The translations under genes and the position numbers were made by a program. A DNA stretch of 31,339 bases, from positions 1-31,339 of IMG/VR virus record IMGVR_UViG_3300025036_000356, one strand, 5' to 3'. The stretch comes from a virus. Lineage: Duplodnaviria > Caudoviricetes. This document shows, one piece after another, positions 3 through 11,174 of the stretch; positions within the stretch are counted from its first letter, which is position 1; each line of letters starts with the position of its first letter. The notes under the pieces are model-generated. The model did no database searches, was not told where the DNA came from, and saw only the letters and a program-made list of their open reading frames with translations.

Positions 3-389
3 GACGGAATATGCTGCTGGTGCGGAGAGCAGATTGTGAATGAACCGCGCCGCCGCTGGTGGCACGCCCGATGCAGCAATGAATATCTGGTAATCAGTTC
101 GAATGCGTCTGCTCTTGATGCCCTGATTGAGCGAGACGGGAACAGGTGTGCCATCTGCGGAAGAAATGATTTACGGCTTGAAGTTGACCATATTGTCGCG
201 CTTCAATCGGCACCACGGGAGTTACGGTTCTGGACGCTTGCAAACCTTCAGCTTCTATGTTCCGTCTGTCATCGGCTCAAGACGACAGTCGATAACCGTG
301 AGGCGCGTCAGGCAAAGTTAGACCCGCCTAAGTTAGCGCCAGTAGATGATGCCGGCTTATATCCGCTGACTGAAAAGGACTTGGCTTGA
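3..389 (+). CDS. HNH endonuclease (5'-truncated at window edge)
   Basis: Frame is open from position 3 (DGICCWCGEQIVNEPRRRWWHARC...), so the start lies before the window. Motifs RDGNRCAICG...LEVDHIVAL...NLQLLCSVCHRLKT match a CxxC + HNH + CxxC nuclease. Confidence 0.85.
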   Translation, partial: DGICCWCGEQIVNEPRRRWWHARCSNEYLVISSNASALDALIERDGNRCAICGRNDLRLEVDHIVALQSAPRELRFWTLANLQLLCSVCHRLKTTVDNREARQAKLDPPKLAPVDDAGLYPLTEKDLA

Positions 390-393
390 GCTG

Positions 394-2460
394 ATGCCTG
401 ACGAGCAGGAGAATTGGGGTCGCGTGATACTCGGCGATTGCATTGACGCGATGCGAGAGATGCCGCCGGCATCAGTGGACGCGGTTATCACCGACCCCCC
501 GTATGGGTTAGAGTTTATGGGAAAGGAATGGGATAGGCTGAGCGGTAAAGGTAGATACCAGAAGGCGGATGTTTGGCAGGATGTCCATGGCTATTCGCCC
601 CCAAGCTATGTCGGCGGTTTCGCCGCACAGGAGTGGCATACTGGCTGGCTGTCCGAAGCGTTCCGCGTCCTCAAGCCTGGCGGCACACTGTTCGCGTTTG
701 CGGGCACTCGCACCTTCCACCGCCTAGCCTGTGCGATTGAGGACGTGGGGTTTGAGCTGAGGGATACTTTGCTATACCTTTACGGTTCAGGCTTCCCGAA
801 ATGTCAAGACCTCGGCGCGATGTATGACAAGGACGCCTGCCGCAAGGAGCTAACGGCGCAGCTTGGTAGAGCGCCCACCAGTGCAGAGTTCAAGGCGGCG
901 TGGAATATATTTAGGACGGTGGTGGGAATGGAGAAGGTTGATATCGGCATACAAGGCGGCTCAATGCACGCGGGACGGTCTAGCGAAGTGATAGAACGCC
1001 CAATCACCGCCCCGCGCACCGCCCTTGCTTGCGAATGGGATGGCTGGAAGGTGGGGGGGCTGAAACCCTCACATGAAGAAATCCTATATGCCCGCAAACC
1101 CTTGCCAATAGAGCTAGAAATGGGTATAATGGTTCGTAAGATATTATTGTATTGGAGTGAACTATGCCGGAACTCAAATGCACTAAATGTGGTAAACTCT
1201 TTACCGTCAAGCCCTCCCGCGTTAGGCAAGGCGCTCGGTATTGCAGTATCCAATGCCGAAGTGTTGATAGAGACCAGACGGGCGCTAACAACCCAATGTG
1301 GGGTAGAAAAGGCAGCGCCAATCCTGCCTGGAAAGGCGGACGCTTTAAGCGGACAGATGGCTACATTGCCGTCTGGACTGGCAACACCTATGAGCTTGAG
1401 CATCGGCTTGTTGTTAGCCGAAAGATTGGGCGGCCTCTTAGGCGCGGAGAAAACACTCACCATCTCAACGGCGACCGCGCTGATAACCGACCTGAGAATC
1501 TTGTCGTTATGGCTACGGGCGCTCATACAAGCCTGCACCATCGGGGCAAAGACCCAACCAAATGGAGGCGGGTTAAGTGCCTCACTTGCGGAAAGTATTT
1601 CCAGAAGCGCGTTGGCGAAGCTAGAGTTCATCGGTATCACTTCTGCTGCCGCGCCTGCTACATCGCCGGAGCGCATCTCACTCCTGGTAGAAGCCGGGCT
1701 GGTGTCGCCTGAAGCGGTCCCCAGCTACGAGCCAATCCTCTGGGCACGGCGTCCTTGCGAGGGCAGCGCGAGTGCCAATGTGCTCAAGTATGGCGTGGGA
1801 GCTTTCAATGCGGATGCGGGGAGGGTAGGGCTGACGGCAGAATGTAACCCTGACGCGATGCACAGCCAGCATAGCCAAGCTTCAATCAACAAAGGCGGCG
1901 CACAACCAGGGGACGAACAGCAAATGTTCAATCCCGCAGGACGATTCCCACCGAATCTACTTCTCAACGACCAAGCAGCCGCAATGCTGGACGCGCAGAG
2001 TGGAGAGAACGGTGCCTCCCGCTTCTTTCCCCGCTTTTCATACACGAGTAAGGCGATACATTGGGAACGCGAGGCGGGGCTGAAGGGTATGCCGTTGGGC
2101 GGTGCTCCAGAATCCGGTAGAAGTTCACCAGCAGCAGGGCGTAAAAGCGCACTAGGAGCGCCACGAATGAACACTAATCCTTGCGTGAAACCCATCCGCC
2201 TGATGCGTTGGCTGATTGAGCTGGTAACGCGAGAAAATGATACGGTCCTCGATCCTCTGGCAGGAAGTGGGAGCACGGGTTGCGCTGCCGTCTGGTGCGG
2301 GCGTGAGTTTATTGGAATCGAGAAAGAGGCTGAATACCATGCCATAGCTGTTGCCCGTGTGAAGTGGTGGGCGAAGCATAGGGGTAAAGAATATGACGCG
2401 ATTCAGCGCCAGTGGAACGCGGCGTCTGGCGATGCGCCATTGTTCGAGGAGATGAAATGA
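394..2460 (+). CDS. Beta-class N4-cytosine/N6-adenine DNA methyltransferase carrying a 218-codon in-frame insertion
   Basis: N-terminal GDCIDAM...VDAVITDPPYG (motif IV), FRVLKPGG, YGSGFPK; C-terminal NPCVKPIRLMRWLIELVT...VLDPLAGSGSTG (motif I)...FIGIEKE. The segment at about 1066-1719 is non-MTase sequence. Confidence 0.9.
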   Translation: MPDEQENWGRVILGDCIDAMREMPPASVDAVITDPPYGLEFMGKEWDRLSGKGRYQKADVWQDVHGYSPPSYVGGFAAQEWHTGWLSEAFRVLKPGGTLFAFAGTRTFHRLACAIEDVGFELRDTLLYLYGSGFPKCQDLGAMYDKDACRKELTAQLGRAPTSAEFKAAWNIFRTVVGMEKVDIGIQGGSMHAGRSSEVIERPITAPRTALACEWDGWKVGGLKPSHEEILYARKPLPIELEMGIMVRKILLYWSELCRNSNALNVVNSLPSSPPALGKALGIAVSNAEVLIETRRALTTQCGVEKAAPILPGKADALSGQMATLPSGLATPMSLSIGLLLAERLGGLLGAEKTLTISTATALITDLRILSLWLRALIQACTIGAKTQPNGGGLSASLAESISRSALAKLEFIGITSAAAPATSPERISLLVEAGLVSPEAVPSYEPILWARRPCEGSASANVLKYGVGAFNADAGRVGLTAECNPDAMHSQHSQASINKGGAQPGDEQQMFNPAGRFPPNLLLNDQAAAMLDAQSGENGASRFFPRFSYTSKAIHWEREAGLKGMPLGGAPESGRSSPAAGRKSALGAPRMNTNPCVKPIRLMRWLIELVTRENDTVLDPLAGSGSTGCAAVWCGREFIGIEKEAEYHAIAVARVKWWAKHRGKEYDAIQRQWNAASGDAPLFEEMK
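1102..1130 (+). promoter_or_regulatory. Sigma70-type promoter for the nested HNH gene
   Basis: TTGCCA (1102-1107), 17 bp, TATAAT (1125-1130); followed by GGAG (1154-1157) 6 nt before the ATG at 1164. Confidence 0.8.
1164..1712 (+). CDS. Nested HNH homing-type endonuclease with N- and C-terminal zinc fingers (different frame from the MTase)
   Basis: CTKC...YCSIQC zinc finger; NNPMWG/NPAWKGG NUMOD3-like motifs; EHRLV...HHLNGDRADNRPENL...H HNH core; CLTC...FCCRAC finger; own RBS and promoter. Confidence 0.9.
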   Translation: MPELKCTKCGKLFTVKPSRVRQGARYCSIQCRSVDRDQTGANNPMWGRKGSANPAWKGGRFKRTDGYIAVWTGNTYELEHRLVVSRKIGRPLRRGENTHHLNGDRADNRPENLVVMATGAHTSLHHRGKDPTKWRRVKCLTCGKYFQKRVGEARVHRYHFCCRACYIAGAHLTPGRSRAGVA

Positions 2461-2943: not shown

Positions 2944-3177
2944 TTACTTGATGAGAGATATGATAACGCCCGTCAAGGCACTCGTAGTCGGCACCGCTAG
3001 CCCGATGAGCCAGTAGAGAACATCGACCCGCGACTCCGTTCTCCCGACCCGCTCTCCGAACTTCGACAGGCTGCTGTAAATCCCATCGAGTTTAGCTTGA
3101 ATCGCCCCGATGTCGCGCCCTAGGTCAGCCAGCTTATACTCGGTCAGTTGGTTCGCTTTGGGTGAATCATTCGTCAT
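2944..3177 (-). CDS. Coiled-coil protein with C-terminal TM helix (XhlA-like/holin-associated)
   Basis: Heptad-like LGRDIGAIQAKLDGIYSSLSKFGERVGRTE followed by hydrophobic VLYWLIGLAVPTTSALTGVIISLI; ATGA overlap with the upstream gene. Confidence 0.6.
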   Translation of the reverse strand: MTNDSPKANQLTEYKLADLGRDIGAIQAKLDGIYSSLSKFGERVGRTESRVDVLYWLIGLAVPTTSALTGVIISLIK

Positions 3178-6100
3178 GGTGCTCTTGCTCCTTTGTATTG
3201 ACGTCTGATTGTTTCGAGCTTGCGTTGCTTGAGCAGTTGCTGCTCCTCGCTGATAGCCTGGAGAATCGGGAACAGCCGATGCGTATTGCCCCGTTTCTGT
3301 TCAACTCGATACAGCTTGCGCAGCATCAGTATCTTGGTCTCAGGGTCGTTCTTAATGGTCTCGAACTGATTCAGGCTGATGATGTGCCGGTCGGACTGGA
3401 TAGCATCATAGGTCTGCTTCCAGCGTTCCCGTGCCGCCTTGTCTTGCGGGTCCAGCAACGCCTTCATCCACTGGTCTCGCACTGCCTCGCGGCTGCTCCG
3501 AACCAGGCGCTGCGGAATGTCGGTGCGCCTCGTCGCTCCCGGAAGACCGGTCCAGAAGCCTATCTGGCGATAGAGGCTGGAAAACGGAGTGGGCAGGAGC
3601 CGATTGATAGTCTGCTTGCCTATCCGTCGCGTCCATTCTTTCATCGTTCCTGCCTGCCCGTATGGCGTAGGCTCGGGCCGGTAGGCGATTCCGCCTAGCA
3701 TATTGACCAGGTCAGAACCCGTGGGTCCGAGAATCAGCGATGACATGCCGCCGGTGCCAGCCGAAACCGCCTCCTGAATATCGCCCAGAATGCCGAAAGT
3801 TCCGCCCCTTTGCACATCCTGCCACAGGCGCTTGCTCAGATTGCTCATCAAGGCTTCGTCCCACATGTATTTCAGCGCAAGTCCTTGATGAACCGACATC
3901 GCATCCAGCAGGCGGTCGATATGCGGGTCTTCATCCTCCCCCAGCGGCCAGCGGAATTGCCACTTCACGATTTTGCGGATGGGCAGAATCACTTCACCAA
4001 CTACAGCCGCTGCACCGGCAAGTTGCACAAAGCGTCCGGCAGCGGCCAGCCGGGGCAAGTAGATATTGTAATGTCCGAACAACGACAGCATGGGCACGAT
4101 GTTGTGATTGCGATAGGCTTCATCCAGCACGTTACGCTTGATGAACTTGCCAGCCATGAATGCAAACTGCTTGTATCGCATCGCCGTCTTGGCGATTGGA
4201 GTCTGCCAGAAGGGCGGAAGCTGCTCTTTGCCAATCACAAACTGCGTCTCGCGGGAATGCCACTCGAAGACGCGGTCGTAAATCGCACTTTTCACATCAT
4301 CGGTTATTGTGTTCCAGCCCCTGACCTCACGGGGCAGCATCTGCCGATGTTCCAGCTGCGACATCACCATCTTCGCCTCGGCGGTCTCCATGCCACCGGC
4401 GGCTTTCACCAAGCGGCGATAGCGACCGATGAGGCGGGTTACATTCAGCACCCCGGCTTCACCGCTCACATAGCGGGCGATAGCATCAGTCGCCTTGAAG
4501 CCGGTGACTGTCAGCACCTTGTTGTTCCAGGCGGCAGCCCAGCCCGGGTCTGCCAGATGCGCATATAGATACTCTCCCAGCACCCGCGAATACTGAGCAC
4601 GCTCGATAATGGCACGGCGGAAAGCCGGATTGGTGGCGAACTTCCCCAGGGTTTCCAGGGTATTGCGATAGCCCGAAAGCTCGCCCGAAAACAGTATCAT
4701 CTGAGAAATGTTCCAGACCTGAGCCAGATTGAGCTTGAGCGGATTCTGGATGGCGCTATCGACCTGACTGACCTTCGACATGAACGAATTATCTACCGCC
4801 GGACGCAGCACCATCCGGTCAACCATATCGAGATACCCGGATACGAACTCTGCATGTTCAGGCGACTTCGCCGCCAGGGCACTTATAGCTTTAGCGGCAG
4901 TCGTGTGCCACTTGCTGTAATGCTCACCGAAAGCCACGGTCTCGCCGATGTAACGGTATACGCTATTGAAATACGAATAGAGCGCCATCGGCACATCATC
5001 ATCGACCCAGCCCGGCAGATTGAGCACCCGGGGCAGGAAGTGGGCGCTGAAAACATCCGGTCGTGCCGCCGACCTATGGGTTACTCCCAATGCCATCCGC
5101 ATAATCCCCATCCAGCCCTCGGCCTCAAACGCGGTGCGCGCCTGCCCCATCATCGCTTGCGGGATTCCCTGTGCCCCAATGTCGGGACCCCCGATGCGGG
5201 CTACGAGCGAGCGATAGACGCCCCACTTGACCGGGTCCTGAATCGTCTTGAGAACATGCAGCATCTGCTCGGTGTAGAGCTTATCGCTGAACTTGCCGAT
5301 TGCCGCCATCAGGGCTTCCCGGTCCTGAACCAGCTGCAAATAGCCGGCCTCTCCCAGCTGTTTGCGTAAGCTCGTAGCAATGATGCTCAGATGATTCATC
5401 GTCTTCTGAATCTTATCGGCATGCTGCACATGGGGGAAGAAGTTAATGCGTGGACGCAGAACCTCCGTATGATGCACGAGTTGCCAGTAACTCTCACGCA
5501 GCGATTCCGTGAGTGCCGGGTTGTTTATCGCCTTGAAGAAAGCAGTTTGCTGAGCCTCGGGTGAAAGTTTCAAGAAGGTAGGGGCATCCATGCCGAAGAC
5601 TTCGCCGAACTTCGGGTCCCCCAGTGCCTCCGCATGAAGGAAATGCCGCACCCGCTTAACGTTAGCTGCGATTTGAGGAATGATTTCCTTGAGTTCGGCG
5701 CTTACATCACTAGCTACCCGTTTTGCCAGTGCGGTCTCGCCAGCCGTCAGTCCCTGGAGCGCTTCTTCCTTGCCGCTATCTAGAAACGCGATGACAGCTC
5801 TATGCACGTGCTTGCCAGCATGGCGTCCCTCTCCCCTGATGATTAGCTTGGCGGCATTCACATAGGCTGCTCCCGCCATCCGCCCGACAATCTTGTTTGT
5901 GAGGTCAAGCATATTGGCGAGGTCATAGAGCGGCTCGGCGGCTCTCGGTGCGATTTTGCCCAAGTCTCGGGCAAGCCCACGCAGCCCCGATTCCACACCG
6001 CTCAACCCATAAGCAACGATACGGCGCATCCAGAGGGCAGTCTTGTCGAGGCTGTTTCGGCTAAGATGTTTCAGACCCCTATCTATCTCGGCATTAAGCC

Positions 6101-9100
6101 CGGAGACAAGAGCCGAGGCTGCCTCTTTGTTCGCCTCTTCTTGCTGAAGCATCCCGCGATATTCCTCGGGGATGTTTTCAAGTGCGAGCTGACCGTCCTT
6201 ATATGCTTGTCGCAGCCCAGCGAACTCTGCCCAATTCTCATCCGACATGCCAGGCGGCGGCTCCTCAAGCACCGAGGGAGCGCCTTCCTCACGAGGCAGA
6301 CGCCATTGCTCAAAATCTTGATTCTGTTTATTCAGGATACGCTCGATAGCTACGGCTTGTATCTGTGCGTTACGGTCGGCAACCGGCGTCTCCGGGGGCG
6401 CTCCGCCTTCCGGCGGGCCAGGCTCTGGCGGGATTGCTTCTGGCGGCACTGCCTCGCCACCTGCCGCCGGCGGAGGAGGCGCTGGCGGACCCTTGCCCCC
6501 TGGTTTCGGAGGCTCTATGGGCGGTCTAGGGGCTATGGCTTCGCGGGCTGCCTGCTGCCCTGCCCGCTGCCCTGCCCACTCCATTACCGCCTCATCGAGA
6601 ATCTCGCCAGTTGGACTCACATAAGCGGTGCCATCACGGATACGGGCATAGGCTTCTTCCGCTATCTGTGCAGCCGCCTCGTCTCGCGGCAGTCCTTCAA
6701 CTACCGCATGGCGCTCAATGAGTTTGTCGAGATTGACGGTTCCGAAGGGGTCTTCAGCATACGCCTCCCGCATCAGCTTATCAATCTTGGTAGGAGGCAG
6801 CCTGCCGCCACGTCCGCGAGCCCGGGTAATCCAGGGAAAACTCTCCGTCCGCATCGGTCGCTGTTCTCGGACTAGTCCGAGCAGCTCATTGGCGTGCTCG
6901 GCGATTTTCTCCGATACCCTGCTGGCACCAGGCACCGCCGCCCAGTCTCGGGACAGATAGCCGAGCTGGAGGTCCGCCAGTTCGCCGGGGGGCATTCGGA
7001 AGTCCATCAGCGGTATATCCATGCCCTCTTTGGTCATCGCGTTCAGATAGTTCTCAAGGTTGCCCAGCTTGATAATCGAGCCTTCTTGCTCCAGCTTGCG
7101 GAACCAGCCCAGATAATCCGAGGGCTTGATACCAACAGCGAATCCAGGCTTGACCATGCCCTGGTCGAGCCAGAGCGCTTCAAGTTGCTTCCGCGTTAGC
7201 TGGAGCTGCACATTGCCATATCGCAGTGTTTTTTCGATATGAACGATTTCATTCTGGAGAGTCTTGTAGACCAACTTGGCTTCCTCGTCCCCATAGAGGT
7301 CGCGGAGCAGCCGATAACCAATGCGCGGGACATCTATGTCGGGCTTGCCCGTAAGTCCTCTGATAGCCCCACTGCGTTTCGCCAGCACTCCCACAAGGTC
7401 GATATACCCGCCATACTCGCCAGCCTGGTAAATCTCCACGATTTGCTTGAAGACCTGCTCATCGGCGGCGGCGGCGAACTTCAGCAATTCTTCGTGCCCA
7501 ATCTGCACCGCGACCTGGCGGGCATGGAAGCTGTCGGGAAGGGGCACCTTTCCGGTTTGGAGCTTCTTCAACATCCCGTTAGCCAGTGCCCAGCCCTTGA
7601 TGTTATCGAAGATTACAATCTCTTTGCCCGGAACCGAGTAGTCGATAATCTGGTATGGTCCTTCTCCTTCGAGAGGTTTGATGTCGAACCACCGAGGAAC
7701 CGAGAGCTTGCCCCATTGCTCCGGCGGCACATCCCATATGTCTTCAGCCTCCAGGATACGTGCCAGCTTGGGCATTTTACGCTTGACCGCTTCCCAGGCT
7801 GGCTTGTTACGCCGCAGCGTTTCCAGCACTGCCAGCATGTTCTGCCGGAAAGCACCCATCTCCTGCCCCTCTATAACCCTATAAACTGCCTCAAGGGGAA
7901 ACGGCGTCGTCTTGCCTTCGCCCTTCCGGGGTAGCTTCTTCCCGAGGATTTCATCCACGATGCCATAACGGCGAGCTACCGCTTCAGCGAGTGAATACCG
8001 CACCTCGTGACCAGCAACAGTAATAGTCTTCCCGGGCTTCAGTCTGCCCGCACGACTCAACATGCTGGTGAGCTTCTCGAATACACGCTTGGCGATTGGC
8101 TCATAGAGATACCGGTTCACGCCCGTCAGACCCTCGGTTATGGCGTTCGCCAACTCCTTGATAGCCGGACTCTTTGCACCTTCGGAACCGCCCACGACAC
8201 GGACAATCGTTGGAATCTGTCCTTCGTCTAGCACCTTGGCAAGCGCCTTTTCAGCGGCAGAGGCATCCAGGCCCAGATTGAGGGCAAACGGATTGCCTTC
8301 GCGGACGATGTTCATTCCTGCGAGTGCAGCCTTCCCCTCGGGCACGCTCCCATACACACGTATGAGTTCCGCATCGTCTACCATGAGATTCATCTTGCTC
8401 GGCACCAGCGCTTCAGTGAGCTGGTCGAACTTGCGGACTATGCGCCCCCACTCCTTGCGCTGCGCCGCTGAACGTCCAGCCATCCCCTTCCCTATCTGCT
8501 CCGGGCTGTATCCCAGCTTCTTCAGCACATAGGCCCGCATGTTAAGCCGTTCAGCATGCCACAGGATAGGCTCCGGGGTGATTTTCGGTAACTGAGCCTC
8601 ACGACCGCCCCGTAGCTCCGCATACAGGTCACCGGGGATGGTGTCCGCGAGTTCGCGGGCCTCCTCGGTTTGACCCTTGTCCACAAGGTCACTAACCTTC
8701 TTCACGGCGCGCTTGAGCTTCTGCTGTGTCCAATCGCCGAACACTGATGTCTCGACCTTCACCGGCTCGCCTTCCCGCGCCAGCTTATTGTTCTTGTGCA
8801 GCCAGTCGACAATCGCCGAGGCGACCTTATTTTGCATCTGGACATCAGCGGCCCGCTGGGCAATCAGCCCGCTGTGTTTCACCAGGTGCTCCAGCCTTTG
8901 TGCCAAGCGATGCCCTTCGCCTGGAAGCAGCACATTGGTTACATAGCGCATGTTGCTAGGCGTAAGCTCGCCACCAGTATGCTCGAAGATATAACCGACC
9001 ACGCCGTGGCGGCTCTGCTGCACCGATATGAGATATTTGCTCCCCTTGGGCATGACTATCTGGAGTTCTTTATGCGCCGTTGGATTGAGCGACCTCAAGC

Positions 9101-11174
9101 GGCCAGTCGCCTGTCCGATTCCGAAGTGCCGAAATCCCGAAAGCCATCGCGTGAGTTTTGCACTACCAAGTCCATCGAACACTGGCGGTATCTTGAACTT
9201 GCGGGCGAGAGCTGCCATCGGCTCATCCATCTCGCCGGTGAAGCCCTCGCCGGCCAGGGTTTCAATCACGTCATTCACACCGGTATCGTAGAACCGATAG
9301 AGCTTCCTGAACATCTCATCTGTGGCGTTGGGCTTGGTTAAGTCGAGCTCTTTGACCCCGGCGAGTTTCCCGTTACGATAATAGGCCCACGCCATCTCAT
9401 CGCCCTTGCCCGGCACCGGTATGAGAATATCGCCTGAGCGCTCCCCGATAGCCCGCTCCACTATTGGAATGGCAAGTCCACTCTCATCGACCATAAAGAG
9501 CTCGTATGAATCCGCCCCCTCCGGACGAGGCCGGAAGCCATGGTGTAGATTCAATTCTCGCTGAGTCTGCCCGCGTGCACTCAGTTCGTCAAAGAAGGCA
9601 TCGTATTTGCCCTCCAACGCTATCTCGGCTTCGGGTGAAAGGTCTTGCGCAAATTCTTCAGCCGCTACCCTAAGCTGCTCGCCATAACCGAGAAGACGGT
9701 CTCCATGGAGCCGGCCAAACACTACCGCATCCTCTCCGGGCACAAGCTCGAAAACCCCTCCGTCAAGAGCTTGCTCAAGCAGTTTGGCATATCGGTCAGC
9801 CTGCCCGCGCCCGGTGATGTAGTCGCGGCTTAGCTTGAACATCTCCTCGAAGCTAATCTTGTCGTTGCCGTATGTCTTGGCGAGCTCGGTGAGGAAGGCA
9901 ATTTCCGACGATTCACCCCGCTCTACTAGCTGCTCCAGGGGTGAAGTCTTCGCCCGGCCGTGAGACCATAATGCCTTTTCTACCCCGCCCCGTGCCCTTT
10001 CAAGATAACTGGGATAACCGTAGGTTTCTACCACTTCGCCAGTCAGGGGGTCAACCTCAAGGCCGGTTCCGATTTGCACGGCTTCTGTGGTGCCCGTAGC
10101 CGCATCGTCAGCAGCCTGTGAAGCCGCGCTCTCTTGGGCGTTCAGTTGCTTGACTGGATGCACGTCCCCGGCGCCGTCGATGACCTTGTCGACATACTTG
10201 CCAACCCGCGCCCAGGGAGCGCCGATGGCATAATAACCGGTCGTCGCTCCCAGCTCGAAAGCGCCCCAGATAAGCCCCGTCTTGTGCATGGCTTCCCACA
10301 TGTTGCGAGCCTGGGACTTATCCGGTGTGCCCGTGCTCGCATAGAGCGCACCTAGCCCATAAGCGTGCCCTGCACGCTCGTAGGTGCTCGCTCGCGCAAG
10401 GTGCGAGAGCGCACTGTAACCCCACTGTCCGAACCTATCAGTTCTGCCGGCGAGCTTGGTGAGGCCGCTAACGCGCTGCACGAATCCCTCGGCATTCTTG
10501 ATAACCCGCTCGGCTTTGTATAGGAACTTGCCAACGCTGGCACCCTTGTATAGCGTCGGATACGCCCTACCGGTGGCGGTTAGCATTTTGCCCGCGACTG
10601 CCCCGGCCCTCGCCAGTCGCGCTGCTTTGGCACCAGCCCCAATCAGTCCCCCGCCAAGAAGCAAGGTGCCAATGCTGGTCACAGCTTCGGCTCCGAACGG
10701 ATGGACTTCGCCCAGCACGGGCAATGTAACGCCTGGACCCTTGGCGTAAGCCATGCCCAAGCCCGTCGCCGGTCGCATAAATCCTTCCTCGCCGAAGCCT
10801 GGTATGTATTCGCCAAAGGGCAGACCGCGCATGCCACCGTAAACACTGCCGATTACTCGCTCCGAAAAGCGCTCCCCGGCTCCCGTGGGTTCATAGCCTT
10901 TCCCATATATCAGACGGCCAAACTCCTCCACGGCCGGGCGCTCTACTGGTGGCGCAACTCTCTCTCCGGTCGGTGTCCGCTCGATTCGCGGATAGACCGC
11001 CTCCGCCATACCCTGAACACGACGGTATTTGGCGAGAGCCGCCATCTCATAGGGAGTCAGACGGCGGGCGGGAATATCCCTGCCCAGGGCTCGCAGTTTC
11101 TGATATACCCGCTGTGCGTCCAGCGCGTGTATCGCAGCCCGCTGCTCTTCCGGCGTTAGGATTTCTTCAGGCAT
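3174..11174 (-). CDS. Giant internal virion/DNA ejection protein (2666 aa)
   Basis: Last and largest of three consecutive genes after the tail nozzle and GNAT; mostly helical Ala/Gly/Glu-rich sequence; hydrophobic N-terminal segments; central Pro-rich linker. Function inferred from gene order. Confidence 0.7.
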   Translation of the reverse strand: MPEEILTPEEQRAAIHALDAQRVYQKLRALGRDIPARRLTPYEMAALAKYRRVQGMAEAVYPRIERTPTGERVAPPVERPAVEEFGRLIYGKGYEPTGAGERFSERVIGSVYGGMRGLPFGEYIPGFGEEGFMRPATGLGMAYAKGPGVTLPVLGEVHPFGAEAVTSIGTLLLGGGLIGAGAKAARLARAGAVAGKMLTATGRAYPTLYKGASVGKFLYKAERVIKNAEGFVQRVSGLTKLAGRTDRFGQWGYSALSHLARASTYERAGHAYGLGALYASTGTPDKSQARNMWEAMHKTGLIWGAFELGATTGYYAIGAPWARVGKYVDKVIDGAGDVHPVKQLNAQESAASQAADDAATGTTEAVQIGTGLEVDPLTGEVVETYGYPSYLERARGGVEKALWSHGRAKTSPLEQLVERGESSEIAFLTELAKTYGNDKISFEEMFKLSRDYITGRGQADRYAKLLEQALDGGVFELVPGEDAVVFGRLHGDRLLGYGEQLRVAAEEFAQDLSPEAEIALEGKYDAFFDELSARGQTQRELNLHHGFRPRPEGADSYELFMVDESGLAIPIVERAIGERSGDILIPVPGKGDEMAWAYYRNGKLAGVKELDLTKPNATDEMFRKLYRFYDTGVNDVIETLAGEGFTGEMDEPMAALARKFKIPPVFDGLGSAKLTRWLSGFRHFGIGQATGRLRSLNPTAHKELQIVMPKGSKYLISVQQSRHGVVGYIFEHTGGELTPSNMRYVTNVLLPGEGHRLAQRLEHLVKHSGLIAQRAADVQMQNKVASAIVDWLHKNNKLAREGEPVKVETSVFGDWTQQKLKRAVKKVSDLVDKGQTEEARELADTIPGDLYAELRGGREAQLPKITPEPILWHAERLNMRAYVLKKLGYSPEQIGKGMAGRSAAQRKEWGRIVRKFDQLTEALVPSKMNLMVDDAELIRVYGSVPEGKAALAGMNIVREGNPFALNLGLDASAAEKALAKVLDEGQIPTIVRVVGGSEGAKSPAIKELANAITEGLTGVNRYLYEPIAKRVFEKLTSMLSRAGRLKPGKTITVAGHEVRYSLAEAVARRYGIVDEILGKKLPRKGEGKTTPFPLEAVYRVIEGQEMGAFRQNMLAVLETLRRNKPAWEAVKRKMPKLARILEAEDIWDVPPEQWGKLSVPRWFDIKPLEGEGPYQIIDYSVPGKEIVIFDNIKGWALANGMLKKLQTGKVPLPDSFHARQVAVQIGHEELLKFAAAADEQVFKQIVEIYQAGEYGGYIDLVGVLAKRSGAIRGLTGKPDIDVPRIGYRLLRDLYGDEEAKLVYKTLQNEIVHIEKTLRYGNVQLQLTRKQLEALWLDQGMVKPGFAVGIKPSDYLGWFRKLEQEGSIIKLGNLENYLNAMTKEGMDIPLMDFRMPPGELADLQLGYLSRDWAAVPGASRVSEKIAEHANELLGLVREQRPMRTESFPWITRARGRGGRLPPTKIDKLMREAYAEDPFGTVNLDKLIERHAVVEGLPRDEAAAQIAEEAYARIRDGTAYVSPTGEILDEAVMEWAGQRAGQQAAREAIAPRPPIEPPKPGGKGPPAPPPPAAGGEAVPPEAIPPEPGPPEGGAPPETPVADRNAQIQAVAIERILNKQNQDFEQWRLPREEGAPSVLEEPPPGMSDENWAEFAGLRQAYKDGQLALENIPEEYRGMLQQEEANKEAASALVSGLNAEIDRGLKHLSRNSLDKTALWMRRIVAYGLSGVESGLRGLARDLGKIAPRAAEPLYDLANMLDLTNKIVGRMAGAAYVNAAKLIIRGEGRHAGKHVHRAVIAFLDSGKEEALQGLTAGETALAKRVASDVSAELKEIIPQIAANVKRVRHFLHAEALGDPKFGEVFGMDAPTFLKLSPEAQQTAFFKAINNPALTESLRESYWQLVHHTEVLRPRINFFPHVQHADKIQKTMNHLSIIATSLRKQLGEAGYLQLVQDREALMAAIGKFSDKLYTEQMLHVLKTIQDPVKWGVYRSLVARIGGPDIGAQGIPQAMMGQARTAFEAEGWMGIMRMALGVTHRSAARPDVFSAHFLPRVLNLPGWVDDDVPMALYSYFNSVYRYIGETVAFGEHYSKWHTTAAKAISALAAKSPEHAEFVSGYLDMVDRMVLRPAVDNSFMSKVSQVDSAIQNPLKLNLAQVWNISQMILFSGELSGYRNTLETLGKFATNPAFRRAIIERAQYSRVLGEYLYAHLADPGWAAAWNNKVLTVTGFKATDAIARYVSGEAGVLNVTRLIGRYRRLVKAAGGMETAEAKMVMSQLEHRQMLPREVRGWNTITDDVKSAIYDRVFEWHSRETQFVIGKEQLPPFWQTPIAKTAMRYKQFAFMAGKFIKRNVLDEAYRNHNIVPMLSLFGHYNIYLPRLAAAGRFVQLAGAAAVVGEVILPIRKIVKWQFRWPLGEDEDPHIDRLLDAMSVHQGLALKYMWDEALMSNLSKRLWQDVQRGGTFGILGDIQEAVSAGTGGMSSLILGPTGSDLVNMLGGIAYRPEPTPYGQAGTMKEWTRRIGKQTINRLLPTPFSSLYRQIGFWTGLPGATRRTDIPQRLVRSSREAVRDQWMKALLDPQDKAARERWKQTYDAIQSDRHIISLNQFETIKNDPETKILMLRKLYRVEQKRGNTHRLFPILQAISEEQQLLKQRKLETIRRQYKGARAP

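Follow-up and report, generated by a model that had tools for sequence, protein, structure and literature searches.

A complete HNH endonuclease gene lies in a second reading frame of a DNA methylase gene on a 31,339-nt linear virus record (the window, meaning the whole stretch of DNA analysed here), and we consider it probable (roughly 0.8) that the inserted DNA is a homing cassette that carries its own promoter and does without splicing. By the homology of its HNH and by its insertion site, the insert belongs to the ShiLan domain family known from the literature, a hidden out-of-frame HNH in the mycobacteriophage methylase gp65 (Gosselin 2023, PMC9957025, in its available part; Arsenault 2025, PMC11855218). 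The principle itself is not new, having been in print as the ShiLan domain, and the novelty implied by the original prediction falls away, as both the element type and a family at this same site are published. Its dual-coding reading is supported; the prediction had not noticed an internal promoter and a Shine-Dalgarno (SD) motif, nor the part that the duplicated motif plays.

The window member and its at least 40 distinct relatives bear on two questions left by PMC11855218, namely how the HNH is expressed and whether the insert is retained. The answers offered are, for expression, a sigma70-type promoter inside the insert and a start led by an SD about 95 nt in, and, for retention, selection for read-through, the split strand being replaced by a recoded one. 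The family-wide tests and the revised start site are what the analysis adds, along with a locus whose natural empty siblings, together with its near-consensus promoter, should make it a good bench model for splicing-free homing.

The locus and the nested gene

The minus strand of the window encodes terminase, head-tail adaptor, virion and endolysin functions; 5 of 19 ORFs scanned gave matches. The features of the methylase locus are as follows.

394..2460, plus strand: beta-class N6/N4 DNA methyltransferase ORF, 688 aa including a 218-aa passenger (PF01555, phrog_67)
493..504, plus strand: catalytic motif IV DPPY, aa 34-37 (translation; D34, P35 and P36 invariant in alignment A3)
1063..1101, plus strand: 5' target-motif copy (copy 1), KPSHEEILYARKP, mostly element-borne and recoded (conservation, structure model)
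1066..1719 (equally 1069-1722), plus strand: ShiLan-type insertion, 654 nt or 218 codons, methylase frame open (duplicated-motif register)
1102..1107, plus strand: candidate -35 box TTGCCA, right after the last Pro codon of copy 1 (consensus match)
1125..1130, plus strand: candidate -10 box TATAAT after a 17-nt spacer, its TAA phased out of the methylase frame (consensus match)
1154..1157, plus strand: SD-like GGAG preceding the ATG at 1164
1164..1712, plus strand: ZnF-HNH-ZnF endonuclease gene, 182 aa, +2 (third) frame (PF13392 HNH_3, E 1.6e-7)
1717..1755, plus strand: 3' target-motif copy (copy 2), VPSYEPILWARRP, native methylase sequence from 1723 (insert-free sibling match)
2176..2277, plus strand: C-terminal motifs X and I, NPCVKP ... 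DPLAGSGST (translation, alignment A3)

The methylase ORF matches PF01555 with an E value of 4.7e-28, its closest solved structure is CcrM (6pbd), and its motif order is that of the beta class, with DPPY ahead of motif X and motif I. A check for the motifs of an active methylase found this order and DPPY present, with motif X reading NPCVKP where the pattern sought was HPTxKP, and motif I reading DPLAGSG where it was FxGxG; the SAM-binding motif occupies aa 620-628. The antisense ORF at 804-1676 was rejected as a gene, having no Pfam match and running in register with the HNH codons. An Rfam scan of the window returned four weak, unrelated matches.

As originally predicted, the insertion measures 654 nt (218 codons), sits between DPPY and the SAM-binding motif and has no stop in the methylase frame. 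The span first given to the feature, 1066-1755, extends over the downstream motif copy, which is native; the insert itself runs 1066-1719 or 1069-1722, an ambiguity that arises because the flanking motif is duplicated. Comparison with insertion-free alleles, the route proposed at the outset for mapping the junctions, supports the 3' boundary: empty siblings pick up again at 1723 or 1729. The two motif copies, KPSHEEILYARKP and VPSYEPILWARRP, are identical at 19 of 39 nt, and copy 2 keeps P5 and R10, as empty alleles do.

The complete 182-aa zinc-finger/HNH gene described at 1164-1712, on the same strand and wholly inside the methylase ORF, was likewise found, in the +2 frame, with a PF13392 domain flanked by two Cys4 zinc fingers. 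Its core His and Asn residues are intact, and H99, H100, N102, D107, N108, N112, H121 and H125 are invariant in alignment A1. The leader ahead of its ATG is 95-98 nt rather than the roughly 60 nt first estimated, and holds the recoded motif copy, the promoter-like site and the SD motif. The host-frame reading of the insert is a passenger peptide of 218 aa that is, as had been noted, rich in Leu, Ala and Ser (41% together).

Because single contigs span the insert in several groundwater runs (wholly or nearly in five of six, with X21 covering part only), it is no assembly artefact. A T>C variant at 1264, inside the insert, is common to four runs and is synonymous in the methylase frame.

Kinship with the ShiLan domain and other nested endonucleases

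The ShiLan domain has been described as 202 codons inserted into the methylase of a mycobacteriophage: the host frame stays free of stops, the third frame encodes a ZnF-HNH-ZnF protein, 11 residues of the flank are duplicated, and neither an intron nor an intein signal is present (PMC11855218). We assign the window insert to this family because its HNH is homologous and its site is the same. The window and ShiLan HNHs share 73 of 177 residues (41%, E 6e-44), and tblastn found the window HNH 41-44% identical, over 97-98% of its length, to HNHs inside methylases in 16 records, including those of ShiLan, Mantra, Starcevich, MISSy and cyanophage Cr-LKS3; for the ShiLan domain the values are 41-43% over 97%. 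Both inserts interrupt a PF01555 (gp65-type) methylase at an LK/PxxEP site, encode a ZnF-HNH-ZnF protein in the third frame and leave the host frame open over a multiple of three of about 200 codons. Both also duplicate a flank of about 11-13 residues, the first 11 or so residues of the window insert resembling the sequence downstream.

The two differ in length (606 nt, or 202 codons, in ShiLan against 654 nt, or 218 codons), in the residue at the junction (Thr or Ser against Pro) and in setting, the window element being from a groundwater phage and ShiLan's from a mycobacteriophage. They also differ in the proposed start. For ShiLan, translation was proposed to begin without a leader at a GTG 18 nt inside the insert, no ribosome-binding site having been found (PMC11855218), whereas the window has an ATG with an SD motif and a near-consensus sigma70-like promoter, and HNH-frame stops up to 1160. 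A leaderless GTG cannot define the family, because it also fails in Starcevich and MISSy, where the proposed GTG is followed by an in-frame TGA.

Among other systems, Pacc40 gp60 resembles the window in having an out-of-frame endonuclease ORF inside an open methylase frame, but is set apart by its published description, with another methylase, site and endonuclease (PMC11855218). According to the available part of bioRxiv 10.1101/2025.01.02.630785, some non-canonical inteins have out-of-frame or antisense endonucleases, and like the window insert they can hold a frame-3 endonuclease in an open host frame; they are carried by a splicing domain, whereas no intein family matched in the window insert. 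A search with the passenger peptide recovered the window's own cluster only, and a PDB search with the HNH profile gave two weak zinc-finger matches only. Nested nucleases are undercounted, because gene callers miss them, as in the annotated cyanophage Cr-LKS3.

The host frame is kept open across the family

Single-protein scans of viral contigs yielded two weak loci in one case and none in the other, and alignment-based scans were needed. Scans with the HNH alignment, keeping the best 80 of each, gave together with earlier loci at least 244 distinct loci with an HNH match. Among the matches listed, 60 were flanked by a PF01555-type methylase and 184 were not. The methylase-flanked loci among these listed matches had no +2 stop across the HNH match in 53 of 60 cases and none in +1 in another 5; the remaining 2 (L013 and L014) were broken. 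By comparison, 11 of 103 free HNH loci with listed matches of at least 100 codons were open in +2 (11 of 99 once four are set aside for lying within or across other long frames, of which three are PF01555 methylases).

The same-site set comprised 48 of the 60 loci, leaving out L014, two loci cut by contig ends and nine at other sites. Removal of the broken L013 left at least 47 elements, which form 41 clusters at 90% identity. Nested out-of-frame HNHs, for which a search of phage metagenomes had been suggested, are thus found at this site at least 47 times (at least 41 distinct), and ShiLan-type elements are, judging from these sequence matches, far more widespread than published.

Stops or frameshifts common in homologous inserts would have counted against the dual-coding reading, and we observed the opposite: 46 of the 47 same-site elements among the matches listed are stop-free over the whole insert, L015 having one passenger stop. 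Over the 41 distinct listed elements, 0 host-frame stops were observed against 197.5 expected, and at matched GC all 41 nested elements were open, compared with 11 of 99 free HNHs among the matches listed. The first 80 nt of the insert lie upstream of the HNH gene; there, 0 of 41 listed elements have a stop in the host frame, as compared with 37 and 30 of 41 for the remaining frames. For the window itself, when the HNH protein was held fixed and its codons redrawn synonymously, the host frame was open in 0, 1 and 1 of 5000 redraws under methylase, large-ORF and flat codon usage, respectively, and in 587 of 5000 when the codon usage was that of the HNH itself, which is already biased. The open host frame across the HNH exceeds chance. 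Lesions in the 5' exon of L090, L091, L019 and L100 were counted against intact read-through; they may be sequence errors or pseudogenes.

The passenger is therefore best read as a dual-coding loop, as first proposed, on the strength of stop purging, protein-level conservation and the want of any intron or intein signal. The alternatives offered alongside it, an unrecognised RNA or protein removal process or ribosome bypassing, found no support. Removal from the RNA by an unrecognised self-splicing intron is very unlikely. The duplicated 5' end does resemble a group I signature (PMC11855218), and 2 of 48 registers checked give the corresponding ends (U before the first boundary, G before the second), which is about chance level. 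An intron, however, does not need a stop-free host frame. The HNH ORF occupies 549 of the 654 nt, the remainder being motif copy, promoter-like site and untranslated region. Moreover, covariance models of the group I/II kind recognised no ribozyme core: no Rfam intron was matched in the window or in 15 related loci.

Post-translational self-excision of the 218-aa passenger, as a novel kind of intein or autoprotease, is slightly less probable still. It would require an open frame, as inteins do, and the ShiLan group has Asn followed by Thr across the 3' junction. No intein family matches the passenger, however, and the insert lacks the intein hallmarks (HINT fold, first Cys/Ser, terminal His-Asn and +1 Cys/Ser/Thr): in the register of the ShiLan paper the residue after the insert is Pro in the window and in 31 of 41 elements among the matches listed, the second residue after it is mostly Asn, Ala or Ser, and a conserved His-Asn is absent. 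Nor does the passenger family hold any conserved catalytic residue beyond those that the HNH codons impose, and its host-frame dN/dS is close to 1 (below).

Least probable of all is bypassing of the insert by ribosomes. In T4 gene 60, the take-off codon must be followed directly by a stop for bypassing to occur, and 50 nt are skipped. The duplicated motif of the window does supply matching codons, for example CCC at 1066 and 1720, but the gap is 654 nt, there is no stop and the frame is kept open. Straight translation through the insert remains our preferred reading: the ribosome would pass along the methylase frame without a break, and the cassette likely survives without splicing for that reason.

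A recoded motif copy may replace a split beta-strand

Over 14 pairs, dN/dS was 0.12-0.55 in the HNH frame and 0.85-1.63 in the host frame of the same DNA, and 0.05-0.31 in the methylase exons where computable. The HNH and the methylase exons are thus under purifying selection and none was seen on the passenger; with a host-frame dN/dS of about 1, the passenger is therefore tolerated rather than selected. In copy 1, A9, K11 and P12 are kept in 35, 41 and 39 of the 41 elements among the matches listed, with third positions free; K0, P1 and E4 belonged to the pattern by which elements were selected, so their 41/41 is no evidence.

In an AlphaFold model of an empty allele the motif forms a confident strand (residues 180-187, pLDDT about 96). 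The full-length model of the window protein, itself weak (pLDDT 57.5, pTM 0.49, 22 sequences, filled alleles only), places copy 1 in a strand at 224-234, copy 2 in a low-confidence coil and the passenger at low confidence. Foldseek with this model returned beta-class methylases at low TM scores, which does not discriminate which copy lies in the sheet. The beta-strand divided by the insert is predicted to be replaced by copy 1. The conservation seen in copy 2 as well is left unexplained by the strand-replacement model.

An unlikely alternative, though the strongest of those considered, is that homing does occur but filled alleles encode methylases that are inactive or not needed, the frame being open only against transcriptional polarity and the passenger fusion being junk. 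The gene is dispensable in the population, one contig of run X3 skipping 351-2430 and with it the whole methylase gene, and exon lesions occur in several filled loci. In addition, the window allele lacks the motif-X His, being the sole one of 31 filled alleles to do so among the matches listed (present in 30/31 filled and 66/66 empty alleles), and reads DPLAG in place of DPFxG. Because of the missing His and this Leu, the window methylase may be weakened. Against inactivity in general stand the exon dN/dS of 0.05-0.31 in filled alleles, the conservation of the element's own motif copy as protein, and catalytic motifs that are kept about equally in filled and empty alleles among the matches listed (DPPY in 29/31 and 66/66, DPFxGSG in 29/31 and 63/66). 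As for polarity, the methylase ends its plus-strand unit and faces minus-strand genes, which leaves little downstream to protect. Retention of a methylase that can still fold around the insert is the reading we favour.

Candidate expression signals in the leader

The candidate sigma70-like promoter at 1102-1130 (TTGCCA-17-TATAAT) scores 11 of 12. Among the listed matches, 15 of 41 leaders hold a promoter scoring at least 10/12, compared with 0/40, 0/40 and 0/41 control windows and with 0.4 leaders expected from codon shuffles; 22 of the 41 score below 9/12. The -35 box mostly lies 33-34 nt into the insert, after the last Pro codon of the motif copy. No promoter of the ShiLan insert is mentioned in the main text of PMC11855218, nor was one located in further literature searching, and the word 'promoter' has 0 occurrences in the available parts of PMC9957025 and bioRxiv 10.1101/2025.01.02.630785.

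The HNH start of the window is fixed at 1164 by an HNH-frame TGA directly before it. Across the family, an SD word of at least four letters precedes the start in 32 of 41 elements among the matches listed, compared with 113 of 932 control windows, an enrichment somewhat inflated because starts were chosen partly by their SD; 9 of the 41 listed elements have none. An HNH-frame stop lies beyond the proposed GTG position in 27 of 41 distinct elements among the matches listed, and Starcevich and MISSy have a GGAGG-led GTG 92 nt into the insert. These comparisons suggest that the HNH frame starts from an SD-led codon about 95 nt into the insert, contrary to the published leaderless start.

In the available part of PMC2988022, T4 I-TevI and mobE likewise have their own promoter and SD embedded in a host transcript, but these endonucleases lie in self-splicing introns or between genes, unlike that of the window. 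I-TevI has a homing-site-like operator that overlaps its promoter (PMC2988022, available part), where the window has a recoded motif copy abutting the -35 box. An SD-occluding hairpin of the I-TevI kind was tried and rejected, the mean unpaired probability being 0.57-0.61 in long and short transcripts alike. A broader proposal, which we hold only tentatively and think rather doubtful as a whole, is that homing endonucleases have, besides introns and inteins, a third route in ShiLan-type elements, and a widespread one. The 39-nt recoded target copy would replace a host beta-strand, remove the cut site and, abutting the -35 box, act as an autorepression operator, and the arrangement would have been invented at four or more sites, in both shifted frames, within one methylase family.

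Empty siblings and probable spread by homing

We propose that a sigma70 promoter and an SD of its own would drive transcription and translation of the HNH, which would nick or cut empty alleles at the conserved KPAxEPIxxARKP codons, the cassette then being copied into the cut allele by recombinational repair. Filled alleles would be immune, neither motif copy being a complete site. The 5' copy would supply the split beta-strand, about 200 passenger residues would loop out, and the 688-aa methylase could fold.

The motif copies fit such immunity. Empty alleles among the matches listed have K0 in 78/78, P5 in 77/78 and R10 in 76/78, whereas among the 41 listed elements P5 and R10 persist in copy 1 of 7 and 8, respectively, and K0 in copy 2 of 8. 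Each copy holds about half of the intact site, which would be consistent with immunity by site splitting.

Groundwater runs with the filled allele also contain empty ones. A sibling contig of run X4 joins 1059 to 1729 via 15 letters (IKPAF; depth 2), insert-free contigs of runs X1 and X2 read GGIKP into 1723 (depth 16-25), and contigs of three runs join 771 to 1723. The distribution among homologous methylases is patchy, as described for ShiLan: when relatives were ranked by the N-terminal half, the best 80 comprised 78 with an empty site (74 called by distance, 4 by motif reading) and 2 filled ones. A FastTree tree was built from 31 filled and 66 empty alleles (97 rows); the window allele sits on a long branch, and the filled/empty label needs 21 changes, at least 7 of them forced by well-supported branches. 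Label shuffles gave a mean of 26.4 changes and only 6 of 500 were as low as 21, that is, there is slight clustering. The identities of HNH and exons are also correlated (Mantel r 0.53, p 0.001, n=27). Because of this correlation and the label clustering, we read the spread as vertical in part, or as confined to near relatives.

The same partial co-descent, together with purifying selection on both genes and the common pairing of nucleases with methylases, could speak for an HNH domesticated with the methylase as a compact pair serving the phage in restriction-modification or marker exclusion, the site being no homing target. We regard this as improbable, on a par with self-excision of the passenger, given the absence of the element from 78 of the best 80 relatives, the coexistence of both allele states, the near-identical HNHs of diverged methylases (below), and the ZnF-HNH-ZnF layout and split conserved target, which fit homing. 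Spread by homing is likely on this comparative evidence. L004, L012 and L015 carry near-identical HNHs (pS 0.17-0.27) in diverged methylases (exon pS 0.55-0.85), which fits what would be expected after recent transfer.

Annotation and translation start of ShiLan-type genes

The published family of ShiLan-type inserts, in which a ZnF-HNH-ZnF gene lies out of frame within an open methylase frame (PMC11855218), extends to Cylindrospermopsis phage Cr-LKS3 (L004 in our survey of loci with HNH matches), where an unannotated HNH of this type occupies positions 2492-2989 inside the annotated DNA methylase gene g59 of the cyanophage record. At the 5' ends of the Starcevich (L006) and MISSy (L007) inserts, the proposed leaderless GTG start is followed by an in-frame TGA, and the 195-aa product therefore cannot be made in these two phages. 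Both carry a GTG led by GGAGG downstream of the published start.

Methylase allele and neighboring ORFs

Besides the nested gene, the window contains the following features:

3-389, + strand, free-standing HNH ORF (PF01844), 5' end cut off
804-1676, - strand, antisense ORF of 290 aa, in register with the HNH codons
2176-2193, motif X of the methylase, reading NPCVKP without the otherwise conserved His
3174-11174, - strand, ORF of 2666 aa

The methylase is directly preceded by the PF01844 HNH ORF, an arrangement shared with ShiLan (gp64), Mantra (gp62) and Starcevich (gp65), whose HNH genes also lie just upstream of the methylase genes. The NPCVKP reading is real, since a contig with 0 differences spans motif X. 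In the groundwater run X3, a contig of depth 10 lacks the entire methylase gene, passing over window positions 351-2430, which indicates that the methylase is variable in the local population. The antisense ORF has no Pfam match and is probably a shadow frame; judged by its position, the 2666-aa ORF probably encodes a large virion protein.

Nested HNH and endonuclease-like ORFs at other sites and in other subfamilies

Near the C-terminal KASxxER motif, several loci (coordinates are those of each locus) have an endonuclease-like ORF nested in the +2 frame, either as a second such ORF or as a separate one, and the host frame is open:

L019, 3524-4024
L024, 3626-4066
L026, 2016-2486
L171, 1933-2358
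L317

In L169, a second insert seems to sit immediately behind the first. Just after GFPK, HNHs are nested in either shifted frame, again with the host frame open:

+2 frame, L035, L098, L099, L110 and L306
+1 frame, L038, L048 and L108

Two further +1-frame HNHs accompany segments termed intein-like on the basis of motif resemblance:

L120, 2480-3106, HNH after GRWPAN, the methylase also having an intein-like insert
L167, 250-1185, HNH within an intein-like segment of the methylase

Other PF01555 methylase subfamilies also contain +1-frame HNHs nested in open frames:

L106, 2062-4323
L107, 2227-3288
L122, 1423-3156
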